Shown here in pieces: positions 53,142 to 57,577 of a stretch of DNA of 64,000 bases (position 1 is the stretch's first letter; each line of letters begins with the position of its first letter). Source of the stretch: an uncultured Planctomycetota bacterium (GTDB lineage: Bacteria; Planctomycetota; Planctomycetia; Isosphaerales; Isosphaeraceae); the NCBI GenBank assembly GCA_963737655.1, contig CAVTTN010000002.1, forward strand, positions 3,520,001 through 3,584,000, in the 5' to 3' direction. The notes below the pieces were generated by a model. It was not told the DNA's origin. It saw nothing but the letters and a program-made list of their open reading frames with translations, and ran no database searches. Both the position numbers and the translations under genes were made by a program.

Positions 53142-53819
53142 GTCCACGATTGTATCCCGACCCCAGGCCCGAGGGGAGGTCGGCGACCCGTCGCGGGTCG
53201 TGGCAATCGGTTCGAATGCCGATGTGAAATTTTCATGGAATCATGATTTGAGATCGGGGAACGCACGGTCTCGTGACCGCGGCCGGGATCGAACCCAGGT
53301 TAGAATCTCATGATTTCCAATATTGTTGATATTACTCAATTTTACGTTTCGCAAGATCGTCGATGTCAACAAAGTGGACAACACAATCATCAAACTGGAC
53401 TACACTCGAGGGGCCAAAAACGCATTCCATCCGAGAAAACAAGGCGAAACCGGGCGCGCACTCGGTAAGGCCAGGTTCCACTTGCCAGAATCTGCATACT
53501 TTTGATGAATGGACTCAAATTCGGTTCTCGCAATAACTTACGCCGCCAGGAGACAGGGTCGCCTCCTGCCGGAAAACGCCCGGATTACGCTTCGTTCCGG
53601 GCCCTGGCTCGGGGCCCGAATCCGAGGGCCGATGCCGCGGGCTCCCGGAGCTTGGCCGGGATCGGGTGATCGGCGGCGTCGGGCGTCTCGATACTCCTTC
53701 CAGAAACTCGATTCGAACGGCCGCGATAAGAAGCGTTTCCTTCTCGGCGGACGGTTCTTCGGGGGCGTCCCGGCCGAGCGACCCCCGGGAAGGAAACGGC
53801 CCTGTCCCGGGGAATCGTC

Positions 53820-53848
53820 TTGCGGAACGTGCGGAGACCGGCCAAGAT
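53820..53848 (+). promoter_or_regulatory. Possible sigma70 promoter of the tRNA
   Basis: TTGCGG-17 nt-CAAGAT, ending 13 nt before the tRNA 5' end. Confidence 0.35.
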
Positions 53849-53861
53849 GGATGCGTTCGAC

Positions 53862-54192
53862 GCGGCCCTAGCTCAACGGTTAGAGCAGGGGACTCATCAA
53901 TAAATGGTGGCGCCGGTGGGCAACCACCGGACGCGATCCGGGTGAATTGCGGGAAGCCTAAACCGACCCCCCCGGCACGGTAATCCGCAGCCAAGCCTGG
54001 CAGGGCTTCGTTCGCCAGGACGGTTCAGAGACTAGCGGGGTGAGCCCCAACGATAATCCCCGCCCCGAGCGCCCGGCCTCCCCGATCGGACCGCCTGCGA
54101 GTCCCGAAGGGAGGGTGAGATAGTCCGAGCCCCTCGGAAACGGGGGGATGCCTCGAATCCCTTGGTTGCAGGTTCGAATCCTGCGGGCCGCA
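53862..54192 (+). tRNA. tRNA-Ile2 (CAT), intron-containing; exons 53862-53897 and 54156-54192
   Basis: Spliced sequence GCGGCCC TA GCTC AACGGTTA GAGC A GGGGA CTCATAA TCCCT TGGTT GCAGG TTCGAAT CCTGC GGGCCGC A folds into a full cloverleaf. The G1-C72 pair excludes fMet, and the sequence resembles ileX-type tRNAs. CCA is not encoded. Confidence 0.9.
53898..54155 (+). ncRNA. Group I self-splicing intron (258 nt, no ORF)
   Basis: P1 with U.G wobble at the splice site (T53897.G53907); P2 with GCAA loop; P3 CCGGGTG/CGCCCGG; P element GAATTGCGGGAA; Q element AATCCGCAGC; R element GTTCAGAGACTA; S element GAGATAGTCC; P9 with GAAA loop; terminal omega-G at 54155. Confidence 0.92.
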
Positions 54193-54197
54193 CTCCC

Positions 54198-56149
54198 TTG
54201 ACCAAATCCCTAGCCTTCCCAGAATCCCCCAAAGCTCCCCGACGAACTCGGGGATGGGGATGGCTCGTCGTCTTCGCCCTGGCAACCCTCCACGAGGTCG
54301 GAAGCTGGGTGGGCCTGGGGGGTTGGAAAGACCTGTCCAGCCCGTCGCCCATCACCCTCCAGGACCACCCGGTCCACGAGCACAGCCTGGCCATCTCCCC
54401 CACCTTTCTCCGCCGGTCCGGGACCACCGCCGGCTACGACCCCAGCTTCATGGCCGGCTATCCCAAGAGCGTGATTTTCCCCCAGTCCTCGACCCTTTAC
54501 GACGCCACAAGCTTCCTGATCCCCGGGGTGCCCCGGCCGATCCTCCATAAGTGGATTGTTTTCTTCGCCCTGGGGAGCATCCCCTGGGTCGTCGCCCTCG
54601 CGGGAAGCCTCTGGGGGCTTCGAGACGACGCCGTCGCCTGGGCCGTCGCCCTGTTCCTGCTCTATGTCTGGACCAATGGGGGGGATGCCGGCTTCCCCCT
54701 CAATTTTGCCTATTTTGGCATGCTAACTTACCTCCTGGCGGTGCCCGTTTGTCTGGTCGCGACGGCGGCCTACTCCCGATACATGGCACGGGGCGGGATG
54801 GGCCGGTGGTTCGGGGCGATCTTGGCCTCGTTCCTGGCGTTCCTGGTCCACGTCACGGCGCCGATGATCGTGGTTCCGGGGGCGTTGTTGAGCTTCCTGA
54901 CCGCCCTGACCAATCGACAGAAGTTCCCCATCTCACGGTACATCGGCGCGTGGACCGTGCCGATCTTCGCGGTCGCCCTGAACGCGTTTTGGTGGCTTCC
55001 GGGCGTGTGGCTCTGGAAGGTCAAGGGAGACACCGGGTTCGCGTTCGACCACTCGAAGGAAAGCGTCTGGACCCGCCTGGCCCAGATCGTCACGACCGCC
55101 CCGCCGATCCAGGCCGTTCTGGTCGGTGCGGGTCTGGTGGGAATTGTGGTCCTTTGGGCCCGGGACCGGGTGTCTGCGGCCGGTCTGGGCGGGTTCGCTC
55201 TGGCCGGGCTTGCCTGGGGTTACCTCGCCGGCGCCGTCCCGAGCCTGGATGCCCTCCAGCCGGGCCGGCATACCTACGCGCTGTTCGCCGGATTGGCCTT
55301 GCTTGGCGGATTGGGGATTTCGGAGGCGTTGGATCGGCTCTCGACCGGCCGCCCGGCCCTTCGCCTGGTGGCCGCCTTTGGCCTGATCGTGTTCGCGGGC
55401 CGGGTGTTCGGTCCGGACCTGGCGGTTTCGGTCCGCTCTCGCCTGGGCTGGCATGCCGGGCCTGGGGCGAGGCCGTTCGTGGGGAGCGAGCCGACCGATC
55501 AGTTCACTCGGCTGATCGCCTGGATTCGCTCCAACGTCAAGCCGGGTGAGCGGTTGTATTACGAAGAGGCCGGCGGCGAGCCGCTACCGGGCGACCCCGA
55601 ACCGTTCGGCGGCCACCGCTATAGCGGCGTGTTGCCGGAGATGACCGGCGTGGAGGTCATCGGCGGCCCTTATTTGAAAGCCTCGGTCGTCCAGAACTTC
55701 ACCCAGATTGGCAGCGGCCTCCTCTTCGGCAAGCCCGAGTGGACCGTGGAACGGTTCGAGAAATACGCCCGCCTCTATCGGCCGTCGGCGATCGTCTGCT
55801 GGAGCCGTCCGGCCCGCGCCTTCTGCCGAAATCACCCAGATCTCGTATCCGTCAGCTTCGACGACGGCCGAATCCTGGCCGGCACGGTGATCGGGTTCGC
55901 GGGCTCGGCGATCCGGGGACGCTGCGAGGTCTTGGCAAGCCCCGGGCGGCTGGACGTCCGGGGGATGGTGCCCGACCTTGACGGCCTGGTCGTGCTCCGG
56001 TATCACCACGCGCCGGACTTCGGAGCCGTCCGACCGTGACGATCGAGCCGGTCCTCCTGGAAGACGACCCGGCACCGTTCATCGGCCTGAGGCCGACGGG
56101 CGGTTCGAGGGAGACGGTCCTGGACCTGGCGATCCCTCCGGCCCGATAA
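54198..56149 (+). CDS. Multi-pass membrane protein, possible GT-C fold glycosyltransferase; apparent frameshift near 56012
   Basis: DHPVH...YDPSFMAGYPK luminal motif followed by many TM segments. The ORF stops at 56039, but a plausible C-terminus continues in another frame to TAA at 56149. Start uncertain. Confidence 0.6.
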
Positions 56150-56272
56150 GATTAGAGTGATGGGACCACCCGCCGAACCCTCAGGAGGAGGCGCCTCGGC
56201 GAGGTGAGGATCGGAAAATGGGGGCGGGCCGTCCGGATCGGCCGCCCCTCGTCTCCAGGGAAGGAGAAGTCC

Positions 56273-57577
56273 GTGACCAGTCCCGAAGAGGCCCCGAACC
56301 CCGACCGCCACGGGCGGAGGGCGGTCTGGATCGCCTACCTCGTCACCATGATCGGCGCCGGACTGATCTACAAGGACAAGGCGGAGGAGGATCGCTCCGC
56401 GTTCGTCCGCTGGCGCCATCAGGTCCTGGAGATCCGCGAAGGGAAGAACATCTGGGATCGCTATTACTTCCCCAATCCGCCCATCCTCGCGCTGACGGTC
56501 TACCCCCTGATGACCCTTCCCCCGGTCGAGGGGGCGTTGTGCTGGTTCAGCCTCAAGGCGTCGATCGCCGCCCTCTGCATGATGGCGTGCATGAGGATGG
56601 CGAAGCCGCCGTGGCTGAAATTCCCGTCGTGGGCGCAGGCGGCCGTGGTCCTTTTATGCCTCCGGCCGATCATGGGAGACCTGCACCACGGCAACAACAA
56701 TTTGATCATCTTTGGCCTGATCGTGACGACGCTGTGGGCCTGGAGGCGGGGCCTGGACGTGATGGCGGGCCTGGCGCTGGCCCTGGCAATTTGCTACAAG
56801 GTCACTCCCGCCTTGTTTGTCCCTTATTTCATGTACAAACGCTCCTGGAGGACGGTCGGGGCGACGTTCCTGGGGATCGTCCTGTTCCTGCTGGTGGTGC
56901 CGAGCCTGATCCTGGGGCCGACGTTCAACGTCCAGTGCCTGGCGAGCTGGTATCGCCGGATCCTGAGTCCCTACATGGAGAACGGGAGCGGCAGCCCTCA
57001 GGAAGTGAACCAGTCGATGGTCGGCGTAATCTACCGCCTCCTCCTGGAGCCGAAGGCGGCCGGTGAGCACAGCTACGGGACGGCCAAGCTGGATCTGAAC
57101 ATCGCGAGCCTCCCTCAAGGGCTCGTCTCGGTCGTGGCCAAGGGGCTCTCGGTCGTCCTGGTCGGCCTCCTGGCGGTCCTCTGCCGGACGAAGACGACCG
57201 ATCGGAAGGACCCGAGGCTCCTGGGCGAATTCTCCCTGGTCGTCCTCACGATGCTGTTCGTGTCGGAGAGGAGCTGGAAGCACCATTACGTGACGATGGT
57301 GTTGCCGTATACCTACCTGGTCGCCCGGACGCTGGTCCTGCCGGCGGAGAAGCGAGTCCGCTGGATCCTTGCCGGGTCCCTGGCGCTGTCGGCGTTCCTC
57401 ATGGCGTGTACGTCGAGCGAGATCGGCTCGCTACTGGTGAAGCACGGGCACAAGATTGCCCAGTTTTACGGCCTCTTCTTCTGGGCGGGGGTGGTGGCGT
57501 ACGTCGCGACGGCCTGGAGGGTCGCGGCCGAGGCCCGAACCTCCCCCCTGGAGCCGGTTCCGGCCTTGACCTCCTGA
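56273..57577 (+). CDS. Glycosyltransferase family 87 (DUF2029) membrane protein
   Basis: FPNPP, DLHHGNNN, LAICYKVTP, NQS, SWKHHY. Confidence 0.82.
   Translation: MTSPEEAPNPDRHGRRAVWIAYLVTMIGAGLIYKDKAEEDRSAFVRWRHQVLEIREGKNIWDRYYFPNPPILALTVYPLMTLPPVEGALCWFSLKASIAALCMMACMRMAKPPWLKFPSWAQAAVVLLCLRPIMGDLHHGNNNLIIFGLIVTTLWAWRRGLDVMAGLALALAICYKVTPALFVPYFMYKRSWRTVGATFLGIVLFLLVVPSLILGPTFNVQCLASWYRRILSPYMENGSGSPQEVNQSMVGVIYRLLLEPKAAGEHSYGTAKLDLNIASLPQGLVSVVAKGLSVVLVGLLAVLCRTKTTDRKDPRLLGEFSLVVLTMLFVSERSWKHHYVTMVLPYTYLVARTLVLPAEKRVRWILAGSLALSAFLMACTSSEIGSLLVKHGHKIAQFYGLFFWAGVVAYVATAWRVAAEARTSPLEPVPALTS

Follow-up and report, generated by a model that had tools for sequence, protein, structure and literature searches.

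A group I intron in a split tRNA-Ile2 gene

The window analysed here is a 64,000-nt stretch of a genome from the Isosphaeraceae, a planctomycete family of soil type, and all coordinates given without a genome handle refer to it. Inspection of the sequence revealed a split tRNA gene at 53862-54192 on the plus strand, in which a 258-nt group I intron (53898-54155, +) lies between two exons. The 5′ exon (53862-53897, +) ends in the anticodon CAT (53895-53897), whose last base, U53897, is the -1 uridine, and the 3′ exon (54156-54192, +) begins after the last intron base, the omega-G at 54155. Joining the exons in silico yields a 73-nt tRNA with the anticodon cat. The intron itself was recognised by its match to Rfam family RF00028 and by comparison with its relatives. 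As an earlier note on this DNA had stated, it has no homing endonuclease ORF; no endonuclease gene fits within 258 nt. The RF00028 match (53885-54147, 48.9 bits, E = 1.3e-10) falls just below the cut-off of 50 bits and leaves ~33 nt after P7 as an insertion, and ARAGORN run without intron search called no tRNA at the split gene. Free-energy folding of the whole intron gave a z of -1.14 and was uninformative.

Because relatives possess both an initiator-type CAU tRNA, uninterrupted in 4/4, and one of elongator type, we assigned the split gene by elimination to tRNA-Ile2. TilS is encoded in the source genome. The interrupting sequence has a group I core (P3-P9 with P7, a U-G pair at the 5′ site and an omega-G), and its insertion after the anticodon CAU of tRNA-Ile2, with U(-1) and omega-G, places it in the class Ile2.5Ug. 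Support for the 3′ splice site comes from P9.0: among 78 family introns, 55 have AAG/CTT, 22 have GAG/CTC and one has GAG/CTT. Comparison across relatives shows the predicted boundaries and P9.0 as well as the affinity of the core and the family-wide presence described below.

The surroundings hold several further features. The upstream spacer (53150-53860) lacks the desaturase gene found ahead of the tRNA in most relatives and contains a GC-rich inverted repeat at ~53737-53800. Downstream, a membrane-protein ORF (54162-56039, +) without a Pfam match has a called start that overlaps the tRNA 3′ exon and is probably too early; a GT87 glycosyltransferase ORF (56204-57577, +) comes after it. A second tRNA intron of the source genome (G000:C2:3626923-3627298, +) interrupts tRNA-Lys(UUU) at 34/35. 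It is of another type, lacks P7.1, was missed by the RF00028 search of that genome and also occurs in six other Isosphaeraceae (loci L528-L533). A tRNA-Ile-like gene with anticodon TAT and C at position 37 (G000:C2:6624238-6624310, L286) lies near a Thr/Tyr/Gly/Thr/Trp cluster; it occurs despite TilS and tRNA-Ile2 in the same genome and could be either a second AUA decoder or a pseudogene. The source genome assembly (G000) yielded no initiator tRNA, and genome G685 has six closely spaced initiator-like tRNA matches (G685:C1:7311693-7313985).

Predicted structure of the intron

The elements of the fold, all on the plus strand, were placed by combining folding, the RF00028 alignment and family comparison. 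P1 (53894-53910) has its U53897-G53907 wobble pair at the 5′ splice site and a guide sequence conserved in the family, and P2 (53910-53934; fold, family comparison) is capped by a GNRA tetraloop. The two strands of P3 (53938-53944 and 54070-54076) covary across relatives, the 3′ strand being marked by RF00028 as well. P4 (53947-53952/53985-53990) surrounds a short P5 without P5abc (together 53947-53990; RF00028 match, core alignment), and P6 with P6a (53996-54001/54014-54019) spans 53991-54023, with compensatory changes in 6/6 P6a pairs. The guanosine-binding helix P7 has the 5′ strand GACTA (54030-54034; sequence, RF00028) and its 3′ strand at 54121-54125 (RF00028). P8 (54077-54115; fold, family comparison) varies in length in the family. 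P9.0 (54127-54129/54152-54154) and P9 with its GAAA loop fill 54127-54154 (family variants, fold); in the fold they alone precede the omega-G, and P9.1 is absent.

Between P7 and P3 lies an extra hairpin, P7.1 (54035-54063), a P7 extension whose stem pairs GCGGGG (54035-54040) with CCCCGC (54058-54063) beneath a conserved 17-nt loop, exactly where the earlier note had placed it. Its motif occurs once in the window and in 0 of 100 shuffles of the window. Among 80 distinct introns collected at this tRNA-Ile2 site, 78 have the motif; the remaining two are IC3-type introns from another family. In an alignment of 87 sequences chosen for similar lengths, the stem is 99.7% paired and four of its five pairs change on both sides; its covariation score was reached by 0/500 shuffles, and slid controls collapsed. 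The stem is nearly invariant inside Isosphaeraceae, so this covariation derives from phage and other bacterial relatives. Among 193 distinct introns, 43 versions of the 5′ arm occur, and in 188 of the introns it is paired throughout. Of the 76 family introns with a measured linker, 5 have another hairpin-sized insert between P7.1 and P3. Assignment of the segment to P8, which the earlier note had named as a possible objection, was rejected: because the segment precedes the covarying P3 3′ strand and P8 folds separately after it, it is an extension of P7.

A pairing absent from the earlier note's description joins this hairpin to P6a. In comparative analysis, CCC in the P7.1 loop (54046-54048) pairs with GGG in the P6a loop (54003-54005), forming the pseudoknot P11. 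Of 172 distinct introns with a long enough loop (21 short-loop introns excluded), 163 show Watson-Crick complementarity between the three bases that precede AAC in the P7.1 loop and three in the P6a loop, versus 95 ± 4 (maximum 110) in shuffles. Introns with a non-CCC loop have the matching partner in 42/49 cases, and 4/68 family members have switched to GAG/CTC. In the 87-row alignment P11 is 98.9% paired with compensatory changes in 3/3 pairs. A phage set gathered separately gave a P11 helix of at least 3 pairs in 57/60 introns, with a mean of 4.07 versus 3.07 ± 0.11 when shuffled and up to 7 bp. Divergent Isosphaeraceae introns were also noted (L030, L193, L195, L238 and L504), four with GAG/CTC as P11 and five distinct sequences with a second insert.

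P11 reportedly goes back to work by Jaeger, Westhof and Michel in 1991. The accessible text of PMC13580324 gives the P7ext-P6b pseudoknot P11 as characteristic of group IA1, and in the C. albicans IA1 intron structure solved by cryoEM, according to the accessible part of PMC12088405, P11 staples the domains together and braces the core. Comparison with relatives shows P7.1 and P11 as predicted elements of the present intron, and we infer a stabilising role for P11. P7.1 would then be a structural brace, with P11 stapling the catalytic P3-P7 domain and the P4-P6 domain together.

Subgroup affinity of the core

The junction between P7 and P3 is 36 nt long in this intron and 3 nt in IC3-type tRNA introns. 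Over 72 core positions, which exclude P7.1, the window intron agreed with Patescibacteria tRNA-Asn introns at a mean of 65.6 (n=14), with phage introns at 60.4 (n=28) and with one SIOphi intron at 55; six loci yielded no core and three more were left out. Agreement was 50 with planctomycete IC3-type Ile2 introns (n=2) and 43.7 with other IC3-type Ile introns (n=3), these IC3 references being Azoarcus-like introns from viral contigs plus the two planctomycetes rather than the Azoarcus sequence itself. It was lowest, at 36.9, with LSU-2593 introns (n=10). With the R segment and J7/3 set aside, the remaining 54 columns gave profile scores of 86.7, 28.7 and 2.7 bits. Core identity, profile scores and the junction bear out the claim of the earlier note that the intron is IA-like and not IC3.

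Trees were built with FastTree and, from 29 rows, with IQ-TREE. As the core phylogeny suggested by that note was to check, the intron grouped with phage and Patescibacteria tRNA-Asn introns and not with the Azoarcus type. That all CAU^AA introns fall together was rejected by an AU test on 29 rows and 54 columns (p=0.003), and again with the planctomycete IC3 intron alone (p=0.018); the core alignments are short (54-72 columns) and the reference sets biased by pattern-based gathering.

The structured insertion between the P7 5′ and P3 3′ strands is a subgroup IA feature, and P11 linking the P7 and P6 extensions is one of IA1; P9.1 and its P7-extension contact, also IA1 features, are absent. So are the two hairpins (P7.1 + P7.2) of IA2, one hairpin only being found, and the two hairpins and IA3-type P6/J6-7 of the LSU-2593 introns. 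The IC3 features of an insertion-free junction and a core clustering with Azoarcus-type tRNA introns are likewise missing. The earlier note had inferred subgroup IA from P7.1/P7.2 insertions; the IA architecture stood and can be narrowed to a single-hairpin, P11-forming kind, as distinct from the two-hairpin kind of T4 or the LSU-2593 introns. Judged from its sequence, the intron appears to have a subgroup-IA architecture, and because P9.1 is absent we file it as IA1-like rather than as a member of IA1.

Relation to known introns

The C. albicans mtLSU IA1 introns, as described in the accessible parts of PMC12088405 and PMC13580324 and likened here by description, also have one P7-P3 extension whose loop is pseudoknotted to a P6 extension. 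The host here is a bacterial tRNA, however, P9.1 and hence the P7ext-P9.1 contact are missing, and P11 of the window family is about 3-5 bp. Closer in core are the Patescibacteria tRNA-Asn(GUU) introns at GU^U, which have the P7.1 motif, P11 and a near-identical core and are mostly ORF-less. They differ in tRNA, phylum and position (35/36 vs 36/37) and in a 5-bp instead of a 6-bp stem, and some carry an HNH gene. Introns of Patescibacteria tRNA-Asn(GUU) were reportedly assigned to IA by Nakagawa and colleagues in 2025, and Patescibacteria tRNA introns of the same architecture appear to have been catalogued already. Because this architecture fills their tRNA-Asn genes, the surprise is smaller than first judged.

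The Azoarcus pre-tRNA-Ile(CAU) intron, of class Ile2.5Ug and IC3 according to GISSD (Williams 2020, bioRxiv 10.1101/2020.01.27.920355), interrupts the same tRNA at the same nucleotide and is likewise small and ORF-less, but its IC3-type class joins P7 to P3 through 3 nt, lacks P7.1 and P11 and differs in P3, P4 and J6/7. Among phage introns, td of T4 is IA2 (PMC4498298), and T4 td, nrdB and nrdD are annotated as group 1A. These and the SIOphi/Grass terminase introns share the P7-P3 insertion, and the latter, from Bacillus phages, are also similar in P4 and J6/7 (55/72); all differ in a longer insertion, with two hairpins by eye, and in lacking the conserved loop motif. BLASTN of the core against annotated phages gave short, weak matches only. 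LSU-2593 rRNA introns, which are IA3 in the accessible text of PMC6125680 and PMC1995217, resemble the window intron in having an insertion between P7 and P3, but have two hairpins, another P6 and J6/7, a distant core (36.9/72) and no loop motif. The IB3, ID and IB4 examples in the accessible portion of the PMC6125680 supplement are without a structured P7-P3 insertion, and PMC11878797 counts some phage introns as members of IA1 while regarding the classification as outdated.

Neither the site nor the ribozyme class nor P11 is new. The literature consulted, including the accessible portions of PMC3984707, PMC11835236, PMC2238919 and PMC7902536, contains no IA1-like intron at CAU^AA and no Isosphaeraceae tRNA intron; subscription journals, Table 1 and the seed alignment of Williams 2020, or supplements may list one.

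Distribution and history

A pattern built from P7 and the loop start matched at least 123 viral and at least 118 genome loci. The 118 genome matches listed divide into 53 to this tRNA-Ile2 intron, 33 to tRNA-Asn introns at GU^U (in Patescibacteria where named), 17 within ribonucleotide-reductase genes of Bacillaceae and 2 others; the motif is lacking in the remaining 13. Ribonucleotide-reductase genes of Bacillaceae with the same P7.1/P11 introns include L156, L187, L209 and L221, some apparently with more than one intron.

The named genomes that share both exons and intron are Isosphaeraceae. Of the 73 other Isosphaeraceae genomes, 70 gave a match covering the intron, and the patchy presence for which the earlier note had proposed a survey was accordingly not borne out; the exceptions are G007, whose tRNA is uninterrupted, and two genomes in which the locus was not found. 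With this spread the invasion is old and largely fixed. The P7.1 motif was found in 0 of 400 other Planctomycetota genomes sampled, and RF00028 matched in 35/36 family genomes versus 15/115 other genomes of the class. Among the genomes inspected, two of another family in the same class (G051 and G056) have IC3-type introns at the same CAU^AA, and three more (G542, G458 and G523) have IC3-type introns at CU^CAU (33/34) of the same tRNA; the latter introns (L517, L518 and L527) belong to two other planctomycete families. The AU test, together with the presence of these IC3-type introns in another family at the very same nucleotide, upholds an independent invasion of CAU^AA, as the earlier note had inferred. 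Even with the hairpin left out, the core clusters with phage and Patescibacteria tRNA-Asn introns, and one common origin with the IC3-type introns at this site is rejected; the sequences therefore support CAU^AA having been invaded at least twice, independently of IC3 introns.

Of 28 family loci, 21 have a desaturase gene beside the tRNA, among them that of the G018 lineage, which branches at the base of the RpoC tree and bears the most divergent intron. The intron and RpoC trees gave a Mantel r of 0.25, with 106/2000 permutations as high; without G018 the value was 0.07, and 2/12 supported host splits are shared with the intron tree. The simplest reading is one old acquisition followed by inheritance and rare loss, which would give the intron a single vertical origin in Isosphaeraceae. 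The intron may instead have spread within the family, a reading for which the weak congruence below G018 leaves room.

In the intron-less tRNA-Ile2 genes of G007 (L281, L282) and G055 (L277), part of the gene recurs in the vicinity, ~15 kb away in G007, in a layout resembling an integration site, and an integrase adjoins the tRNA at one intron-bearing locus (L027).

Splicing

By its predicted structure the intron would leave pre-tRNA-Ile2 through two guanosine-initiated transesterifications, with the 5′ site at the P1 U-G pair and the 3′ site at the omega-G held by P9.0. Excised group I introns circularise. Four RNA runs were searched with contigs matched at 80% likeness. RNA contigs of relatives from two studies (X6, X9) contained four joints leading from the intron 3′ end to its 5′ end, of which one resembles a full-length circle and three look shortened; runs X1 and X2 contained no joints. 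No exon-exon joint was listed in the RNA contigs, where absence is no evidence. These joints hint at excision and circularisation in relatives.

Origin of the intron

The earlier note had proposed an rRNA- or phage-type donor. The phage half of this looks right and the rRNA half does not: the motif occurs in 0/34 LSU-2593 introns, 0 of the 118 genome matches listed lie in rRNA, and an rRNA signature flanks none of the 343 motif-pattern loci listed, 118 of them genomic (control 30/45). An rRNA donor was accordingly rejected for LSU-2593. The 78 family introns are 252-416 nt long, with a longest open frame of 102 codons, too short for a typical nuclease. Within a related tRNA-Asn intron, by comparison, lies an HNH nuclease gene (L161, E = 1.9e-28), and phage relatives have ORFs within the intron. 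No nuclease family was present among 53 flanking ORFs scanned next to the tRNA, and no viral tRNA-Ile2 copy of the intron among 68 pattern matches. In the homing-cycle model, loss of the ORF is expected after fixation. Because such relatives carry these genes, homing followed by nuclease loss would be a likelier entry than reverse splicing.

Several other accounts of the ribozyme and its arrival were weighed. An Azoarcus-type IC3 intron that merely acquired a hairpin would share its tRNA and site with Azoarcus (IC3 in GISSD), and the short P5, the GNRA loops at P2 and P9 and the missing ORF would fit; this account is largely refuted and hardly credible given the core identity, profile scores and AU test, and given that the hairpin is accompanied by a P11 partner and a loop motif common to phage introns. 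A more elaborate version, in which a class ancestor's IC3 intron at CAU^AA kept its P1-P2 and P9 while recombination swapped its core for a phage IA1-like one, draws on the G051 and G056 introns, which sit at that very nucleotide and whose first 20 nt and P9 resemble those of the window intron, and on the mixing of modules: many phage introns and the tRNA-Arg intron of G037 combine P7.1 with an IC3-like P4 and J6/7. We nevertheless consider such a replacement unlikely, as the shared exon dictates the guide part of P1, the entire core beyond P7.1 is non-IC3, and genomes sister to G051 and G056 (G046 and, by match pattern, G041) have an uninterrupted tRNA, as do the other families inspected. The G037 intron (L276, G037:C273:20700-21800), at CCU^AA of tRNA-Arg(CCU), has a profile score that falls between the two classes, and the same mix occurs in 69/83 distinct viral pattern matches.

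As to the route, reverse splicing of an rRNA-derived IA intron into CAU^AA, which the earlier note had raised, agrees with the lack of a nuclease-length ORF in any of the 78 family introns and with the intron circles of relatives. That ORF absence is also expected after fixation, though, and relatives carry nuclease ORFs; LSU-2593 introns moreover have two hairpins, another P6 and J6/7 and no copy of the motif, and no rRNA site appears in the 118 genome matches listed. We regard this origin as very unlikely. Reverse splicing from a phage transcript is a further conceivable entry route.

Our preferred reading, which we hold to be probable, is that of a compact, P11-braced IA1-like ribozyme that entered once, from a phage source, near the base of Isosphaeraceae, by homing with subsequent nuclease loss, and was then inherited. 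It would belong to a large family that occupies protein genes of phages, ribonucleotide-reductase genes of Bacillaceae and tRNA-Asn genes of Patescibacteria, and its entry into CAU^AA would be independent of the IC3 introns there. Nuclease-driven homing from a phage-borne copy would be the most likely start of this history.

Implications

At CAU^AA, an IC3 site, two unrelated ribozymes occur in one class, and the insertion site would thus be no predictor of ribozyme class. Isosphaeraceae tRNA-Ile2 is easily mis-annotated, because standard tRNA calling misses the gene and the Rfam score lies under the cut-off. A small, GC-rich, P11-braced natural ribozyme acting on the substrate of the Azoarcus model would also make two ways of stabilising a core directly comparable.

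A wider reading is possible, although we lean against it in its full extent. It would make the intron one member of a large lineage, as yet unnamed, of minimal ribozymes in bacteria and phages that are braced by P11 and have no P9.1; this lineage would have repeatedly invaded the anticodon loops of tRNAs (Ile2, Asn, Arg) and would grade into IC3, whose tRNA introns might then be IA1-like ones that have shed P7.1 and P11. On this view tRNA-Ile2 of Planctomycetia would have undergone three or more invasions (at 36/37 by IA1-like and IC3 introns, at 33/34 by IC3 introns), and all lysidine-dependent AUA decoding in Isosphaeraceae would depend on this ribozyme. If so, the 258-nt intron would be a natural IA1-like counterpart to the Azoarcus ribozyme, with a substrate in common.
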